Positions 10,559 through 50,710 of a DNA stretch of 52,556 bases are shown in pieces. The DNA is from Candidatus Saccharimonadota bacterium. GTDB taxonomy: Bacteria > Patescibacteriota > Saccharimonadia > Saccharimonadales > SZUA-47. A model generated the notes under the pieces. It was not told the DNA's origin. It did no database searches and worked only from the letters and a program-made list of their open reading frames with translations. Made by a program: the position numbers and the translations under genes. Position 1 is the first letter of the stretch; the number at the start of each line of letters is the position of its first letter. The stretch covers positions 1 to 52,556 of the forward strand of contig JAGQNQ010000002.1 in the NCBI GenBank assembly GCA_020428015.1, read 5' to 3'.

Positions 10559-11530
10559 CTAGCCTTGCTTGATCAAGAAGCCCATGTAGGCAAAGTAAGC
10601 AAGAACAAATACCAGTCCTTCGATACGATTGAGTCGGTGGCGGCCGTTCACGAACATGAAAATAAACAGCCCGAGGGTTGCTGCTACGCCTACGGCAATA
10701 TCTATTGACCCGTTTGCAGCGACTGGTAGTGGTGCGACACTACTGCTGGCACCAAGGATCCAGAATGTGTTGAATATGTTACTTCCGATAACGTTGCCTA
10801 TTGCTATGTCGTTCTGACCTTTGATAGTAGCAATGAGCGACGTGGCAAGTTCTGGCAGGCTGGTACCAATAGCGACAACAGTGAGGCCGATAAGCGACTG
10901 ACTCAAGCCCGCTTTTTCTGCAATGCCAACAGCGTTGTCAACAAGCAGACTTCCACCCAGGACAAGTAGTCCAAAACCTATGAACGCATATACAACTGAA
11001 AGCGATGTGCTATAAGTCTGAATTTTAGTTGATTCTGCGTTTGCTTTTGCATCTCGATCATTACGAGCTAGACCGAAAATGTAGTACATAAAAATAACAA
11101 ATAACACAAGAAGAGAGACTCCGTCAGTACGTGTGATTGCGTTTGATGGAATATTGTCAAACAAGCTATCGTTGGCCTCTACAAATATGAGCCCCATACC
11201 GGCTAAGGCGAGCGGAATTTCTTTCCAGACAGTGGTGCTTTTTACGATGAGAGGTTGGACCAGTGCGCAAATACCCAGAATCAGTAGGATGTTCGCGATG
11301 TTACTACCAATGACGTTACCGAGCACGATGTCGGTCGAGTTTCTTAGCGCTGCGGTGACGCCTACAGTCAGTTCAGGCATTGACGTACCAAAAGCCACGA
11401 CAGTCAATCCAATGACAAGTGTTGATATATGGAACTTTTTTGCGATTGATGCAGCGCCTTTGACCAAAAAGTCTGCACCAAAAATAAGTGCAACAAACCC
11501 AGCAAGCAAAAAGACAATATTTAAAAACAT
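10559..11530 (-). CDS. Ca2+/Na+ antiporter (CaCA family, YrbG-like)
   Basis: Two alpha-repeats are present: GTSMPELTV...GNVIGSNIANILL and GTSLPELATS...GNVIGSNIFN. Confidence 0.85.
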   Translation of the reverse strand: MFLNIVFLLAGFVALIFGADFLVKGAASIAKKFHISTLVIGLTVVAFGTSMPELTVGVTAALRNSTDIVLGNVIGSNIANILLILGICALVQPLIVKSTTVWKEIPLALAGMGLIFVEANDSLFDNIPSNAITRTDGVSLLVLFVIFMYYIFGLARNDRDAKANAESTKIQTYSTSLSVVYAFIGFGLLVLGGSLLVDNAVGIAEKAGLSQSLIGLTVVAIGTSLPELATSLIATIKGQNDIAIGNVIGSNIFNTFWILGASSSVAPLPVAANGSIDIAVGVAATLGLFIFMFVNGRHRLNRIEGLVFVLAYFAYMGFLIKQG

Positions 11531-11582: not shown

Positions 11583-11658
11583 TGGTGGGGGTACCTGGAC
11601 TTGAACCAGGGACCAATCGGTTATGAGCCGACTGCTCTAACCACTGAGCTATACCCCC
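11583..11658 (-). tRNA. tRNA with CAU anticodon, probably tRNA-Ile2 (lysidine-dependent)
   Basis: Minus strand reads GGGGGTATAGCTCAGTGGTTAGAGCAGTCGGCTCATAACCGATTGGTCCCTGGTTCAAGTCCAGGTACCCCCACCA. It folds into a clean cloverleaf with an encoded CCA. From memory, the D-arm, variable region and T-arm closely resemble E. coli ileX, so the Ile2 versus Met assignment is tentative. Confidence 0.9.
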
Positions 11659-16210: not shown

Positions 16211-16221
16211 AAATTCTATCT

Positions 16222-16312
16222 TGGTAGCGGGTCCGCCAGCTGGCGGAAGGACTCGTCTATAAATGTTCGCTCGGTAACGTGCGAAACGCACGCTCGCTCA
16301 GCCAAGCAAAGA
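16222..16312 (-). repeat. tRNA-fMet-3'-end-terminated repeat unit (copy disrupted by a 16-nt palindrome)
   Basis: Minus strand reads TCTTTGCTTGGCTGAGCGAGCGTGCGTTTCGCACGTTACCGAGCGAACATTTATAGACGAGTCCT[TCCGCCAGCTGGCGGA]CCCGCTACCA. It is about 90 percent identical to 16948-17025. Confidence 0.7.
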
Positions 16313-16321
16313 CTCCCGTCT

Positions 16322-16651
16322 TTATCTAACGACCGTGCGTAAAAGTCCAAGATTTCCAGCAAATGAAAAAGTTCTTCCGTCGTCTGTTACTATAGTGCTG
16401 CCCGGTTCAAGGTGTGTTAGAGAACAGCTGTCATCTATATATACTCCATCGCCAGAAACTACTTCATAACGATGTCTTCCGCCACGCCAAGTTTCACAAA
16501 AGCGCTCTGCGGTTAGCTGTGAATACCAGACAATTCCTTCACCGGTTTCGGGATCTCTTAACCAGCATTCCTCATCAAGATTCACTTGGGGCATATTTGA
16601 GTAAGGCATTCCCAAATCTAATTTTTTAGGTATAAGTCCTTCTCCTGCCAT
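16322..16651 (-). CDS. hypothetical 109-aa protein embedded in the tRNA-fMet repeat array
   Basis: The ORF has an AGAAAGAGAG RBS-like stretch and its own TTGTAC-18-TATAAT promoter. I recognise no family. Confidence 0.4.
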   Translation of the reverse strand: MAGEGLIPKKLDLGMPYSNMPQVNLDEECWLRDPETGEGIVWYSQLTAERFCETWRGGRHRYEVVSGDGVYIDDSCSLTHLEPGSTIVTDDGRTFSFAGNLGLLRTVVR

Positions 16652-16691
16652 GTCTACTCTCTTTCTGTTAGCGGCTAAACTCTATAAATTA

Positions 16692-16721
16692 ATTATATAA
16701 CAAATATATAAATGTGTACAA
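16692..16721 (-). promoter_or_regulatory. candidate promoter for the 109-aa ORF
   Basis: On the minus strand: TTGTAC (16716-16721), an 18-nt spacer, then TATAAT (16692-16697). Confidence 0.4.
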
Positions 16722-16733
16722 TATATATTTATA

Positions 16734-16782
16734 GGGTAGGACTCGCCCACATTCTGCGGGCCTGAAAGTAGCGGGGGTAGGA
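16734..16782 (-). repeat. two permuted fragments of the tRNA-fMet 3' end flanking a 22-nt hairpin module
   Basis: Minus strand reads TCCTACCCCCGCTAC-TTTCAGGCCCGCAGAATGTGGG-CGAGTCCTACCC. The same 22-nt module occurs next to the Met-tRNA 3' copy at 24404-24425. Confidence 0.6.
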
Positions 16783-16912
16783 ATATAACTTCGCTGCAGA
16801 GCAGCTTAGTATATAATCCGCCCATTTTACGCCTTCGGCTAGGGGGATTATCGTACCTTCGCTCTCCGCCAGCTGGCGGATCGCTATACGGTTCTCGCCC
16901 TGCGCCGATACA

Positions 16913-16941
16913 AGAAAAAACAGCCACGATGTGTGACTGTC
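16913..16941 (-). terminator. rho-independent terminator after repeat unit 2
   Basis: Minus strand reads ACAGTCAC-ACATC-GTGGCTGT followed by TTTTTT. Confidence 0.6.
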
Positions 16942-16947
16942 TTTTCT

Positions 16948-17087
16948 TGGTAGCGGGGGTAGGACTCGACTATGAATGTTCGCTCGGCAACATGCGTAAC
17001 GCATGCTCGCTCAGCCAAGCAAGGATTCCTCAATATGCCACTGGCATATTTCGCCTATCGGTTCTCGTCCAACACCGAAACATGAAA
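16948..17087 (-). repeat. tRNA-fMet-3'-end-terminated repeat unit 2
   Basis: Positions 16948-16969 are identical to the tRNA 3' end at 17118-17139 (tggtagcgggggtaggactcga). The body carries the GGCGAA-hairpin-TGAG-nnn-TCCTTGCTTGGCTGAGC module, which is also present at the tRNA-Lys locus. Confidence 0.7.
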
Positions 17088-17111
17088 AAGGCCCTACACA
17101 AGGTAGGGCTC
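17084..17111 (-). terminator. rho-independent terminator of tRNA-fMet
   Basis: Minus strand reads GCCCTAC-CTTGT-GTAGGGC followed by CTTTTTC. Confidence 0.7.
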
Positions 17112-17117
17112 TTTTCA

Positions 17118-17192
17118 TGGTAGCGGGGGTAGGACTCGAACCTACGACCTTGTGGTTATGAGCCACACGAGCTGCCTCTGCTCCACCCCGCG
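17118..17192 (-). tRNA. initiator tRNA-fMet (CAU)
   Basis: Minus strand reads CGCGGGGTGGAGCAGAGGCAGCTCGTGTGGCTCATAACCACAAGGTCGTAGGTTCGAGTCCTACCCCCGCTACCA. It has the 1:72 C-U mismatch and a CGCGGGG acceptor, as in bacterial initiators. CCA is encoded. Confidence 0.92.
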
Positions 17193-23533: not shown

Positions 23534-23730
23534 CTGTGTATAGTTACTTTCCTCTTAATATCTTTGCAGATCGACCAGTTTAGCGAGGATGTGTAACGTT
23601 GATAGTTTCTCTGTGTACTCTTCACTCATTTATACTCTTGCAAGCTCTATTATCCCACAAAATGCAAAAATCAACTAATTTTTTCACGAATAAATAACAG
23701 AGGAGGATAAGCAGCACTATAAATATACTA

Positions 23731-23759
23731 TTGACAAAAAATAAAGCATAAGCTATAAT
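23731..23759 (+). promoter_or_regulatory. perfect-consensus sigma70 promoter with no ORF downstream
   Basis: TTGACA (23731-23736), a 17-nt spacer, then TATAAT (23754-23759). Confidence 0.6.
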
Positions 23760-23766
23760 AGTGCTC

Positions 23767-24340
23767 AGTTGATTAAAAAACAAAAAATCAACAAAAACAA
23801 AAATTAAATCAAAGGAACGAACGAAAATGTAAACGTCATTCAAAAAACGTTACACGGTTCCTACGAACCAAAAGGCTGCGCAGCCATCAAGTCTACACCT
23901 TATTTCGGTCGGAACGAGCGATTTTTTCCCACACTTTTCATCATATAAAAAAGTGCAAAAAACAAAAAATTGCTCGTAAACCCATCAAAATCTTTGGGGA
24001 AAAGTGAGAAAAATTGAAGCTTGAAACCAGAGTAAGGTCTATGCGATACTAGGTGAGTCATAGACAAAAACAAAAAAATCAAAAAAGCACCTGTAACAAA
24101 TGTTAGTTGCGTGCACTAAAACAAATAGAAAGGAGTAGCTCTTTAAGCTCTAATTTCTTAAAAAGGAAAAAGAGCTGGGCGAATAACCTATATGAGTTAC
24201 GAACGAGAAGAATCAAAGAGTCTTTTGGTCAAAATTTATGACCGTATCTTTGACAACTAAGATAAACTAGAGCAATCTAGAACAGGAAAAGAACTTCTTC
24301 GGATTAAAAGGTCAGTCCCTTCCGAAGAAGTTTTTATTTT
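23767..24340 (+). ncRNA. candidate ~570-nt A-rich, hairpin-rich non-coding transcript of unknown family
   Basis: It is bounded by the consensus promoter and by a terminator (aacttcttcgga 24292-24303 pairing with tccgaagaagtt 24321-24332, then a T-run). The longest ATG ORF I can find on this strand is 22 codons. At least six stem-loops are separated by CAAAAAACAAAAAAT-like tracts. Confidence 0.35.
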
Positions 24341-24350
24341 TATCAAGAAT

Positions 24351-24536
24351 TAAAAATCCCATCATGGGATGAGATTATTATTTTGGTAGCAGGACCGAGA
24401 TTTTCCCACATTCTGCGGGCCCGAAACTTCATCTTTGCAAACAAGTTTGCAAGAGAAGGTTTCCTTGCGAAAGTTCACTGAACTTTCTCACTCGTGACCC
24501 TATGCCGCGCTCAAATACCGAATACTAATATCAAAA
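24351..24536 (-). repeat. 186-nt unit: a 133-nt structured body plus a 53-nt perfect copy of the tRNA-Met 3' end and terminator
   Basis: Positions 24351-24403 are identical to 24537-24589. The body contains the hairpins GAAAGTTCA-G-TGAACTTTC, TTGCAAAC-TT-GTTTGCAA and CCCGCA-GAA-TGTGGG. Confidence 0.7.
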
Positions 24537-24569
24537 TAAAAATCCCATCATGGGATGAGATTATTATTT

Positions 24570-24646
24570 TGGTAGCAGGACCGAGATTTGAACTCGGGAC
24601 CTCAGGCTTATGAGTCCTGCGCTCTAACCAACTGAGCTATCCTGCC
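24570..24646 (-). tRNA. tRNA with CAU anticodon, probably elongator tRNA-Met
   Basis: Minus strand reads GGCAGGATAGCTCAGTTGGTTAGAGCGCAGGACTCATAAGCCTGAGGTCCCGAGTTCAAATCTCGGTCCTGCTACCA. From memory, the D-arm is identical to E. coli elongator Met, so the Met versus Ile2 call is tentative. Confidence 0.9.
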
Positions 24647-33332: not shown

Positions 33333-33359
33333 TTAGCACTCTTGATATATGACTGCTAG
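33333..33359. promoter_or_regulatory. CIRCE-like operator overlapping the hrcA promoter
   Basis: TTAGCACTC-ttgatatat-GACTGCTAG. The promoter is TTGATA (33342-33347), a 17-nt spacer, then TATAAT (33365-33370). Confidence 0.7.
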
Positions 33360-34320: not shown

Positions 34321-34799
34321 GCAATAAAGAGCCAAATTATAAGGAAGTAGCAGAACAACTTGCCAAAGAAAATGCTCAGTTGAACGAAGCACTACTTCGT
34401 GAGCGCGCTGACGCAATGAATGTTCGCAGACGCGCTGAAGAAGATAAGCTAAAGCTAGCAGGATTTTATAAAGCGATGGTAATTCGTGATTTATTACCAG
34501 TAATTGATAATTTTGAACGCTCGCTTAAACACGTACCAAAAGACTTACAGAAAAACGAATATATCAAAGGCATTCAAGGAGTTGTTAAGCAGTTTGAACA
34601 AACGCTTGAAAAGCTCGGTTTGAAGCGAATTAAAACTGTTGATGAGCATTTTGATCCAAATTTACATGAAGCCGTAAGCATGGAAGAGGGCGATGGGAAT
34701 TCGCCAGCTGGCGAAGAAACTGTTTCCGAAGAACTGCAAAGTGGCTGGATGCTAGGAGACGAAGTCCTTCGCCACGCTATGGTACGAGTGAGGAGTTAG
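34317..34799 (+). CDS. grpE: nucleotide exchange factor GrpE
   Basis: GTG start, then LRERADAMNVRRRAEED...LLPVIDNFERSL...FDPNLHEAV. Confidence 0.9.
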   Translation: MSNKEPNYKEVAEQLAKENAQLNEALLRERADAMNVRRRAEEDKLKLAGFYKAMVIRDLLPVIDNFERSLKHVPKDLQKNEYIKGIQGVVKQFEQTLEKLGLKRIKTVDEHFDPNLHEAVSMEEGDGNSPAGEETVSEELQSGWMLGDEVLRHAMVRVRS

Positions 34800-35355: not shown

Positions 35356-35382
35356 TTAGCACTCACAGCTCTTGACTGCTAA
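35356..35382. promoter_or_regulatory. CIRCE-like operator overlapping the dnaK promoter
   Basis: TTAGCACTC-acagctctt-GACTGCTAA. The promoter is TTGACT (35372-35377), a 17-nt spacer, then TATGAT (35395-35400). Confidence 0.7.
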
Positions 35383-42858: not shown

Positions 42859-42885
42859 TTGGCACTCTATAGGCTAAAGTGCTAA
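42859..42885. promoter_or_regulatory. CIRCE-like operator upstream of dnaJ
   Basis: TTGGCACTC-tataggcta-AAGTGCTAA. Confidence 0.6.
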
Positions 42886-49221: not shown

Positions 49222-49298
49222 GGGACCATAGCTCAGCTGGTTAGAGCACCTGCCTTTTAAGCAGGGTGTCCTGGGTTCAAGTCCCAGTGGTCCCTCCA
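49222..49298 (+). tRNA. tRNA-Lys (UUU)
   Basis: GGGACCATAGCTCAGCTGGTTAGAGCACCTGCCTTTTAAGCAGGGTGTCCTGGGTTCAAGTCCCAGTGGTCCCTCCA. It folds into a clean cloverleaf with an encoded CCA. Confidence 0.95.
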
Positions 49299-49299
49299 A

Positions 49300-49482
49300 A
49301 GAATGGCCACCCTTCAGGGGTGGTTTTTCTTTGGATTGTCTCCTGAAACTTACCTAAAAGGGCACCTTGAGTGTCCTGCTGGCGAAGAAGTTCTGCGAAC
49401 TTCTGAGTTTTCCTTGCTTGGCCGAGCATATGCTTTAGCTTTTTGCGAGCAGAAAAGGCGCAAGTCCCAGTGGTCCCTCCAA
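49300..49482 (+). repeat. 183-nt non-coding unit ending in a 22-nt perfect copy of the tRNA-Lys 3' end
   Basis: Positions 49461-49482 equal 49278-49299. It contains a terminator (49305-49329) and the GGCGAA-hairpin-TGAG-nnn-TCCTTGCTTGGCCGAGC module (49381-49428) shared with the fMet array. Confidence 0.7.
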
Positions 49483-49485
49483 TAA

Positions 49486-49516
49486 AAAGTCCAACTCGGA
49501 AGTTGGATTTTTTTTA
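49486..49516. terminator. bidirectional rho-independent terminator (for the tRNA-Lys unit and nhaA)
   Basis: TCCAACT-CGGA-AGTTGGA (49490-49507) is flanked by an A-run and a T-run. Confidence 0.7.
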
Positions 49517-50710
49517 TTTTACAGTCCTGCTTTTGACTGTCCGCAAAATAAACACGCCTATAATAGACGACAAAATAGATGCAGTGAACACCCCAGCGAT
49601 GGCTGCATCACGCAATGCATGGTTTTCAAAGGACAAATCTGCAATTAGCAGAGACACCGTAAACCCGATTCCGGCTAGAAAGCCAACGCCTAATAGCTGC
49701 GTCCAGGTAAAGCCAGCTGGTTTCCTGGAAAGACCCAGTAAGTTAGATACAAAGCTTGCTGCAAAAATACCGACTGGTTTTCCAATGAGTAATCCTCCGG
49801 TTACTCCAGCAAATACGTTCAGGCTGCTGCCGCTTTCAAGTGAAAGATCGGACAGACGTAGACCTGCATTCGCAAAAACAAAAAGAGGGACAATGATATA
49901 CGCGGTTAATGGCAGAAGTATATCTTCAACTTTTTCTGAAGACTGTAGATGAGTCGCGTTTTTCCGCGATGTAACCAGCGGAGCGAGCACGGCTAGAATA
50001 ACCCCCGTCATTGTTCCCGATATACCCGCGAGGGTAAAACAATACCAAAGGATAAAACCAAGCACTCCAAAAATAACTAACCAGTTGCGTTGCCTTCTGA
50101 ACAGAACGAGAAACATAATAACCGTGAACGCGGCGATAAGAGCGAAGGCGTTTTCTGGGTGGTTAAAGAATAGTCCAATAATAATGATGGAGCCAATATC
50201 GTCGATAATTGCGAGCGCTAAAAGAAAAATTCGAAGGCTTCGGGGAATCCGCTTACCGATCAGCCCAAGCACGCCAATAGCGATAGCGATGTCGGTTGCA
50301 ATAGGTACCGCCCAGCCATTACTTTCAGGCGCATATTGATTTATGCTGGTATAGATGAGCGCAGGCAGCAGCATGCCGCCGACTGCGGCTGTTACCGGAA
50401 AAGAAGCTTTACGCCAACTTCGAAGCTCTCCGTCGATAAGTTCACGCTTGACCTCGAGCGTGACGACGAGAAAGAAAAGCGACATCAGCCCCTCACTAAT
50501 CCAATGTTTTACGTCAAGAGATACACCTCCTAGACTTATTTTGTTATGGATGAATGATTGATATAAATCGTTGAAGTTTGTGTTACTTAAAACAAATGCA
50601 GTAGTCGCTGCAATTAGGAGTAGCGAGCCACTCCGTCGTTCTTCGTGAAGAAGAAAGCTCAGAATGTTACGAGGAAGCGTAATTGCTGAATGCCGCTTAT
50701 GCTTTGTCAT
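49514..50710 (-). CDS. nhaA: Na+/H+ antiporter NhaA
   Basis: 398 aa with about 12 TM helices. LAIIDDIGSIIII matches the NhaA DD motif region. Confidence 0.9.
   Translation of the reverse strand: MTKHKRHSAITLPRNILSFLLHEERRSGSLLLIAATTAFVLSNTNFNDLYQSFIHNKISLGGVSLDVKHWISEGLMSLFFLVVTLEVKRELIDGELRSWRKASFPVTAAVGGMLLPALIYTSINQYAPESNGWAVPIATDIAIAIGVLGLIGKRIPRSLRIFLLALAIIDDIGSIIIIGLFFNHPENAFALIAAFTVIMFLVLFRRQRNWLVIFGVLGFILWYCFTLAGISGTMTGVILAVLAPLVTSRKNATHLQSSEKVEDILLPLTAYIIVPLFVFANAGLRLSDLSLESGSSLNVFAGVTGGLLIGKPVGIFAASFVSNLLGLSRKPAGFTWTQLLGVGFLAGIGFTVSLLIADLSFENHALRDAAIAGVFTASILSSIIGVFILRTVKSRTVK

Follow-up and report, generated by a model that had tools for sequence, protein, structure and literature searches.

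Small folded non-coding insertion units at tRNA and tmRNA genes of Saccharibacteria: an undescribed family and its possible mobility

The 52,556-nt stretch of DNA analyzed here (Candidatus Saccharimonadota bacterium, assembly GCA_020428015.1, contig JAGQNQ010000002.1; referred to as the window) carries, directly behind its tRNA-Lys gene, a 183-nt unit. It belongs to a hitherto undescribed family of insertion units in Saccharibacteria that are small, folded and non-coding. We read these units as small (~125-190 nt) non-autonomous mobile elements that target tRNA and transfer-messenger RNA (tmRNA) genes and depend on an enzyme supplied in trans, and assign this reading a probability of about one half. 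A preliminary description, made from the letters of the window, had reported the repeat, terminators and stem-loops of the Lys locus and implied that the unit could be excised; its structural claims held throughout, and the implied mobility was borne out in part.

The Lys locus consists of the following features:
49222-49298, plus strand: tRNA-Lys(UUU) with encoded CCA, the intact target gene (ARAGORN; Rfam tRNA, 72.4 bits).
49278-49299, plus strand: direct repeat copy 1, inside tRNA-Lys, from T-loop position 56 to one base past CCA.
49296-49334, plus strand: terminator 1, hairpin GGCCACCC/GGGGTGG extended by CCAAAGAA/TTCTTTGG.
49331-49366, plus strand: 5' segment of the unit, TTGGATTGTCTCCTGAAACTT and ACTTACCTAAAAGGGCACC, based on predicted folds.
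49383-49407, plus strand: hairpin A of the core, with a C-G pair, tandem G.A/A.G, an 8-bp stem and a 3-nt loop.
49408-49422, plus strand: conserved single-stranded linker TTTTCCTTGCTTGGC.
49423-49450, plus strand: hairpin P3 of the core, C-[GA]-GC ... GCTTTAGC loop ... GC-[GA]-G.
49451-49460, plus strand: spacer AGAAAAGGCG between the core and repeat copy 2.
49461-49482, plus strand: direct repeat copy 2.
49484-49513, plus strand: terminator 2, bidirectional, common to the Lys unit and the convergent NhaA gene.

The 22-nt repeat CAAGTCCCAGTGGTCCCTCCAA occurs exactly twice in the window, without mismatches and 183 nt apart; no third site was found in the window at up to three mismatches, and none of 100 shuffles gave a match. 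It covers T-loop position 56, the 3' strand of the T stem, the 3' strand of the acceptor, the discriminator, CCA and one further base. The terminator-like hairpin reported between the copies is present at 49305-49325 (plus strand), and the extension of terminator 1 pairs the CCA of tRNA-Lys with a TGG beyond the T tract. Terminator 2, described earlier as strong and bidirectional, is also read on the minus strand at 49507-49490 and serves NhaA, which ends at 49514. Both stem-loops seen in the letters, GGGCACC/GGTGTCC (49360-49376) and GAAGTTC/GAACTTC (inside 49383-49407), appear in the minimum-free-energy folds, with fold z-scores of -3.5 (RNA, 49299-49520) and -3.0 (DNA, 49278-49460). Hairpin A was defined via the A1 alignment, RNAalifold and pair counts. 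In the predicted folds the closing helix is formed by TTGGATTGTCTCCTGAAACTT paired with either repeat copy. The adjoining ACTTACCTAAAAGGGCACC is an antisense copy, now decayed, of the T-arm and variable region of tRNA-Lys (~12/18 by eye), and the P3 helix, the inner part of which is weak, is decayed in the Lys copy as well.

The Lys unit has no coding capacity. A 60-aa open reading frame (ORF) at 49303-49485, suspected in the preliminary description to be spurious, is indeed so: it runs across terminator 1, the covarying hairpins and the tRNA copy, and no reading frame is conserved, because homologous cores differ by 1-2-nt indels together with compensatory stem changes. This unit is also found in GCA_020428065.1, an independent assembly that is 99.0% identical over 3.2 kb and the contig of which ends within the tRNA; therefore, the repeat is not the assembly artefact that had been named as a threat to the claim. 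The interior of the unit shows no changes between the two assemblies, with only ~1.6 expected, and the CCA of repeat copy 2 is TCA in the second strain. As a separate observation, 8 of the 39 differences between the two strains fall in ~45 nt (49479-49522) comprising the second CCA and terminator 2.

Membership of a family was established. The Lys unit and the first unit (u1) behind tRNA-fMet in the window have a common module, CCTTGCTTGGCYGAGC. A pattern derived from it retrieved eight true loci in species-representative genomes, six of them in metagenome-assembled genomes (MAGs) titled Saccharibacteria or Saccharimonadales and two titled only 'bacterium', plus four chance matches in other phyla; a 20-mer search of metagenomes yielded 32 loci. 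All relatives (loci with L numbers below) were seen as MAG pieces of 8-14 kb. In these Saccharibacteria MAGs and metagenomes, the core of ~75 nt lies behind tRNA genes for at least 15 isoacceptors and behind tmRNA. The hosts are tRNA-Lys, fMet/Met, Arg (GCG, TCT, CCT), Pro (CGG, TGG, GGG), Leu (CAG, TAA, TAG), Glu, Trp, Tyr, Thr and Cys, and tmRNA at no fewer than eight loci (at least 8), with the tmRNA confirmed by Rfam in L055, L064 and L060. Most copies lie ~96-100 nt downstream of the tRNA on the same strand. No family of Rfam 15 matches the units at gathering or permissive thresholds, only tRNA and tmRNA passing, and nothing relevant was found in the literature on mobile elements and non-coding RNAs of Saccharibacteria.

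A covariance model of the core (R1) recovers the module noted earlier as common to the Lys unit and the fMet array, and also finds more distant copies:
49378-49461, Lys unit: 76 bits.
16967-17058, fMet unit u1: 67 bits.
16254-16323, a copy with P3 only: 25 bits.
L022 2924-2980, a unit of a second type (type 2): 21 bits.
24438-24495, tRNA-Met unit of the window: 15 bits.

The core consists of two hairpins closed by tandem G.A pairs and joined by the conserved linker, and its fold was quantified on 31 aligned cores. All eight RNAalifold pairs of hairpin A covary, and in the extended structure 17 of 22 pairs are changed on both sides. Paired cells make up 75%, against 63% in shuffles (0/500 reach the observed value) and 25-52% with slid partners. 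The three tandem G.A/A.G motifs account for 143 cells, some members having Watson-Crick pairs instead. G.U combinations (20 cells) outnumber A.C combinations (4 cells), and hence one strand folds, which in the window is the tRNA strand. Such a strand-specific fold points to a single-stranded intermediate. Hairpin A is common to at least two unit types with different 3' modules; type-2 units from three genomes, each at a different tRNA, can be aligned and show compensatory changes. The opposite strand was also considered as a tRNA-like gene in which the core would supply the D or anticodon arm, and was rejected, as no pairing for an acceptor stem could be constructed and the excess of G.U over A.C favors the other strand.

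Across the family, the typical order is tRNA, a terminator pairing the CCA, an antisense copy of T loop, T stem and variable region, the GATAGG junction, hairpin A, the linker GTTTTCCTTGCTTGGC, hairpin P3, a spacer, a sense tRNA copy and a second terminator. The spacer comprises 7-29 nt and mostly ends in TAG(G). The sense copy runs from T-loop position 55-58 to CCA or beyond and is exact over 19-41 nt in tabulated cases and over 56-57 nt by direct reading. The antisense T-arm copy, present ahead of the core in most units, is exact over 10-19 nt and in each case matches the local tRNA (L030 15/15, L061 19/19, L045 12/12 and L034 12/12, all exact; L022 15/17 by eye). Since the two segments, antisense and sense, cover overlapping parts of the tRNA, a closing helix can form; in L045 it is predicted to reach 18 bp. 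A strong terminator stands between the tRNA and most units, and no promoter was seen. Two loci deviate in that there is no terminator between tRNA and core and the terminal 3' copy comes from a tRNA other than the adjacent one (L049 6750-6880, L063 10027-10140), which suggests recombination between units of different loci.

Three of the four tRNA genes in the window carry units, the exception being tRNA-Met at 11583-11658. The layout proposed for the Lys locus does recur at the fMet and Met loci: the tRNA and its terminator are followed by 130-160 nt of structured spacer, then by the repeated tRNA 3' end and a further terminator. The tandem periodicity of units is 170-186 nt. The tRNA-Met gene at 24570-24646 has a 56-nt repeat that takes in its terminator, and the interior of its unit (24404-24533) has hairpin A in common with type 1. 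Behind the tRNA-fMet gene (17118-17192) lies an array of units, which also contains a promoter, a 109-aa ORF and one more partial unit. The features of these two loci are as follows, the older part of the array being listed from the tRNA outward:
24348-24589, minus strand: tRNA-Met unit, type 2, with 56-nt repeats at 24534-24589 and 24348-24403.
16948-17139, minus strand: tRNA-fMet unit u1, of the Lys type, 170 nt per period, with TCGAGTCCTACCCCCGCTACCA at 17139-17118 and 16969-16948.
16221-16947, minus strand: older part of the fMet array, comprising the remaining entries.
Within 16221-16947, minus strand: unit u2, having a different 3' module and, at 16781-16768, a partial copy.
16767-16734, minus strand: remnant of a type-2 unit with a partial copy.
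16652-16733 and 16322-16651, minus strand: promoter region and 109-aa ORF.
16254-16323, minus strand: P3-only core, after the 109-aa ORF.
16255-16221, minus strand: tRNA-fMet copy interrupted by a 16-nt palindrome.

With increasing distance from the tRNA, the fMet array passes from a perfect repeat through two partial copies to the palindrome-interrupted copy, a gradient expected if new units enter beside the tRNA. The 109-aa ORF has its own AT-rich promoter and is ~94% conserved in MAG HKST-UBA54 (L024); it has no Pfam match and looks like cargo inserted into a tRNA 3' copy. The perfect 16-nt palindrome TCCGCCAGCTGGCGGA occurs twice in the array, at 16232-16247 and 16865-16880, with a variant at 34700-34715. 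One copy forms the hairpin of unit u2, the other splits the last tRNA-fMet 3' copy between T stem and acceptor strand, and the sequence is absent from all retrieved loci.

Comparison of orthologous loci demonstrates turnover. At the syntenic tRNA-Lys/NhaA locus of L022 (NhaA 64% identical), a type-2 unit takes the place of the Lys-type unit, and its terminal copy follows the different tRNA-Lys sequence of that genome. L024 has the same tRNA-fMet array, ~94% identical, without unit u1: in this comparison 170 nt are extra in the window and are delimited precisely by the 22-nt repeat TCGAGTCCTACCCCCGCTACCA, and the tRNA-fMet gene of L024 is directly followed by the counterpart of the second terminator of the window. 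The two arrays differ also by a 73-nt microhomology deletion within a type-2 unit of the window. Thus the excisable unit implied by the preliminary description is supported to the extent that exactly one unit, bounded by the repeat, is missing from a relative; neither a circular or free form in assembled sequences nor a read-level empty-site allele was observed. An empty tRNA-Lys site was sought via NhaA homologues, and synteny was found in L022 only, L017, L019 and L068-L070 being not syntenic.

Units were also found in other orientations and positions. About eight cores are antisense to adjoining tRNA genes or lie in their leaders, hairpin A then adjoining the reverse complement of the tRNA 3' part, which ends at position 44 or 52. 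In L061 (560-1200, minus strand), two antisense cores are located between a TATAAT box and tRNA-Pro(TGG), and hairpin A adjoins nucleotide 1 of the intact tRNA-Pro; therefore, its leader holds two cores, and downstream of the same gene there is a sense unit with truncated P3. In L065, an inverted core is bracketed by a 25-nt direct repeat, the partial copy there being identical to the neighboring tRNA. In L042 (330-520, minus strand), a sense core sits in tRNA-Cys around position 27, accompanied by a diverged ~48-nt duplication of the promoter -10 box and the 5' part of the tRNA, a mirror image of the usual 3'-end duplications. Finally, in L059 (~10895-10990) a P3-only copy lies right behind the stop codon of a 653-aa ORF, set between 10-nt direct repeats CTTCTGTGAA. 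P3-only copies also follow cargo genes, namely the 109-aa ORF of the window and the five-gene cargo of L025/L029. The latter (L025 6760-8000 and L029 1-1400, contiguity assumed) spans ~2.6 kb between two near-identical tRNA-fMet units, and among its five ORFs are those for a C39-like peptidase and a cytidine/deoxycytidylate deaminase; no recombinase was found in it or in the 109-aa ORF cargo. A 25-nt GC-rich insert, AGCCCCGCGCGAAGCCGGAGCGCT, was noticed at the T-loop position of tRNA-Pro 3' copies in L030 (~2330-2360) and L038 (~330-360) in opposite orientations, and may be a second tiny insertion element.

A mobile element is favored over a vertically inherited RNA gene because the core is unrelated to tRNA, the flanks are copied from the host gene, and both orientations and several insertion points occur, as do truncated and nested copies, decay arrays, type replacement at an orthologous locus and a presence/absence difference. 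In the proposed scheme, tRNA and tmRNA genes would be the insertion sites, and only those units would persist whose long target duplication leaves a copy of the gene intact. The 22-nt repeat of the Lys unit would be the target (att) duplication, extending from the T-loop insertion point to the gene end. The element proper would be made up of the antisense T-arm piece, hairpin A, linker, P3 and spacer, with a short junction (GATAGG in most relatives) ahead of hairpin A and in some copies also a terminator of its own. The conserved hairpins would be the cis-acting part, read on one strand, and a single-stranded intermediate, either RNA or single-stranded DNA, would be processed by the trans-supplied enzyme. 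New units would enter beside the tRNA and displace older ones outward, where they would decay.

Two mechanisms may be envisaged. In the first, a folded hairpin would serve as the att site, with exchange of one strand in the T loop, as in CTXphi or integron attC; here a mimic of the target duplex would arise by folding of the terminator together with the antisense copy and the sense 3' copy. The offset between the antisense piece, which extends to positions 44-52, and the sense copy, which begins at 55-58, would thereby be explained. In the second, target-primed retro-insertion with long variable target duplications would account for those duplications, the P3-only truncations and the non-tRNA site. 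The mechanism is potentially novel.

Several points weigh against this reading. The hairpin-att model leaves the tRNA-Cys 5' duplication and the protein-gene case uncovered, and the retro-insertion model gives no direct account of the antisense T-arm piece. No transposase, integrase or reverse transcriptase was linked to the units within the 8-14-kb MAG pieces. Pairing of cognate 5' and 3' segments did not differ significantly from non-cognate pairing (p = 0.064). The L024 difference could equally be a loss by recombination between repeats. The invariance of core and linker is partly imposed, the loci having been retrieved with core-derived search patterns. Finally, about three quarters of the copies lie on the tRNA strand just downstream of the gene, which also fits an RNA dependent on tRNA transcription.

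The last point leads to the main rival, which is compatible with mobility and is in our estimate possible, if rather unlikely, as the explanation of the units. According to it, they encode a small RNA resembling E. coli RtT, transcribed by read-through from the tRNA promoter and released by tRNA 3'-end processing at the two CCA sites; its antisense and sense tRNA segments would close a three-way junction. The product could act, e.g., as a mimic or sponge of tRNA 3' ends, and gene conversion would keep its ends matched to the adjoining tRNA. Covariation, the preponderance of G.U over A.C and the tandem G.A pairs are classic signs of RNA structure, most copies keep to the tRNA strand at the ~96-100-nt distance given above, and the units end in NCCA and have a predicted closing helix, as with the 18 bp of L045. 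The architecture agrees with that of E. coli RtT, a sequence annotated as the small RNA RttR, and weak matches are reciprocal: the Rfam RtT model scores 16 bits on 16948-17089, and R1 ~11 bits on the E. coli units. However, a strong terminator without a visible promoter divides most units from the tRNA, ~8 copies are antisense to tRNA genes or lie in leaders, and decay, interruption or a foreign origin of the 3' copy is frequent (L034, L026, L030, L049, L063). Moreover, in the Lys unit itself the P3 helix is weak and the copy-2 CCA is mutated in the 99%-identical strain, and units are present, absent or replaced by another type at orthologous loci.

The comparison with RtT deserves detail. In E. 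coli K-12 (NC_000913.3, 1286600-1287640), the RtT/tyrT units are 178 bp long, near the 170-186-nt period seen in Saccharibacteria, each ends in the tRNA-Tyr 3' end, and each starts, as read in K-12, with an antisense copy of the tRNA-Tyr T arm, GGGGAAGGATGAGAAGCTTCGAC; we have not seen this last point made before. Like the Saccharibacteria units, they measure ~180 nt, stand directly behind the tRNA on its strand, are tandem, contain the tRNA 3' copy with CCA and can form a closing helix from the 5' antisense and 3' sense T-stem/acceptor copies; R1 gives ~11 bits on each of the three, at a GGGC-GA...GA-G hairpin before the tRNA copy. By contrast, the Saccharibacteria units have the extra P3 module and usually a terminator between tRNA and unit, and they occur at no fewer than the 15 isoacceptors (at least 15) and tmRNA in both orientations, whereas RtT was viewed at E. 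coli tyrT only. Membership of the RtT RNA family (RF00391) was rejected: the best score, 16 bits on the fMet unit, compares with a 45-bit gathering threshold, and the model has no matches on the Lys unit or on eight related loci. Thus RtT is an architectural analogue, with sequence similarity that is weak and unproven. To our knowledge, the tyrT/RtT repeats have stood unexplained in origin and function since 1978. The mode of action of rttR is stated as unknown in a preprint.

A bolder proposal, which we consider unlikely, makes the units mini-cassettes of a tRNA-anchored insertion system akin to integrons or retroelements, with E. coli tyrT/RtT as a distant relative. A single-stranded intermediate of ~180 nt would align on the tRNA gene by its antisense and sense target copies, and a trans-acting enzyme would insert it in the T loop, regenerating the gene. 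If true, this would imply widespread overlooked parasites of tRNA genes, or tRNA-tagged RNAs, from bacteria of the Candidate Phyla Radiation (CPR) to enterobacteria.

Quite improbable, in our view, is that the units are scars of integrase islands or prophages that entered the tRNA 3' end with a replacement 3' end of their own and later lost the interior, with attL, attR and two att arms remaining, as in cis-mobilizable elements (CIMEs). Repeats with a start inside the T loop and an end at varying distances beyond the gene are the classical signature of tRNA/tmRNA integration, the tmRNA gene being reportedly an integration site in an account by Williams from 2002. The accretion of arrays with the newest unit nearest and the cargo genes between units (L025/L029; window 16322-16651) point the same way. 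Against this, the cargo and the listed neighboring Pfam families contain no integrase, the attR copy lacks the inverted core half-site expected of tyrosine-recombinase sites, and duplication of a tRNA 5' part and insertion at a protein gene are also seen. Recurrence of one minimal configuration across many tRNAs and species, the hairpins evolving in a compensatory manner, is not expected of att arms, and viral contigs contain neither the module nor the tRNA-Lys att sequence. As for the surroundings, no recombinase occurs among the 25 most frequent Pfam families listed for 150 ORFs within 4.5 kb of cores, all of them housekeeping or otherwise non-recombinase (146 further families stand outside this list), or among the 25 most frequent listed for the 64 ORFs of the window. 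As regards CIMEs, att-like repeats are present, and a recombinase and an autonomous partner were not found in these sequences. A phage att site was tried as a separate candidate and rejected: scans of viral contigs gave module matches at chance level only and zero matches to the 21-mer of the tRNA-Lys 3' end.

Local origin, by slippage or template switching at the terminator palindrome that duplicated the tRNA 3' region in both orientations without any element or function, is very improbable; the terminator does center a palindrome including CCA/TGG, and the 170-186-nt periodicity is suggestive, but a tRNA-unrelated core of ~75 nt common to units at more than 15 genes in many species largely refutes it. 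An assembly artefact or chance repeat, for which one could cite the related strain's contig ending inside the tRNA, can practically be dismissed given the 0/100 shuffles, the identical unit in an independent assembly and the family on dozens of independent contigs.

Among known elements, the units resemble tRNA-integrating elements and CIMEs in the tRNA 3' direct repeat starting at the T loop, the regenerated tRNA, newest-nearest accretion and occasional cargo. Unlike these, they are 10-100 times smaller, show no integrase and no inverted core site at attR, and have covarying hairpins, an antisense T-arm segment and other insertion positions and orientations. With the attP(+) of CTXphi, an integrative mobile element exploiting Xer (IMEX), and with integron attC they have in common strand-specific imperfect hairpins conserved in structure rather than sequence and array growth at one site; however, their att hairpin would copy the individual target gene, no Xer or IntI partner was identified, and the tRNA-Cys 5' duplication and protein-gene site do not fit. 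Like miniature inverted-repeat transposable elements (MITEs), repetitive extragenic palindromes (REP/REPIN) and elements similar to short interspersed nuclear elements (SINEs), they are small, non-coding and non-autonomous, with many copies per lineage in both orientations, nested or truncated. They differ from MITEs in that conserved terminal inverted repeats are lacking, the inverted segments being target-specific, and in that duplications measure 10-57 nt instead of a fixed short length, and from REP in that no GTAG/RAYT signature was established. Long variable target duplications and truncation on the hairpin-A side (P3-only copies) resemble target-primed, SINE-like insertion, for which we know of no bacterial precedent. 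Hammerhead, K-turn, group II domain V, IS110 bridge RNA, TnpB omega-RNA and the homing CRISPR RNA of CRISPR-associated transposons (CAST) were rejected, as their motif order does not fit and partner genes were not seen.

The rest of the window is housekeeping chromosome, with Hsp70/GrpE/DnaJ, FtsH, LepA, MurJ, RuvC and NhaA, the closest protein match of NhaA being 98% identical and encoded in a Saccharibacteria MAG. Downstream of the tRNA-Met unit (23700-24330, minus strand), there are ~600 nt that are AT-rich and ORF-poor with repeated TTTTTTGTTTTTG-like runs. Three inverted repeats similar to CIRCE (controlling inverted repeat of chaperone expression), TTAGCACTC-N9-GAGTGCTAA with 1-2 mismatches, lie by chaperone genes (33333-33359, 35356-35382 and 42859-42885; 0.02 expected by chance) and are presumably HrcA operators.

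Beyond the preliminary description, our analysis added the antisense T-arm segment, the family-wide core, the association with tmRNA and the E. coli RtT parallel. Saccharibacteria genomes are ~1 Mb in size and have little spare DNA. A folded element that tracks the ends of tRNA and tmRNA genes would be either a type of mobile element undescribed for the phylum or a new class of RNAs tagged with tRNA 3' ends. For annotation, the units break assemblies at tRNA genes and yield spurious ORFs and pseudo-tRNA fragments; they also mark sites of accessory-gene accumulation. The alignable family is a starting point for an enzyme search by phylogenetic profiling and, for the first time, allows the E. 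coli RtT repeats to be approached by comparison.

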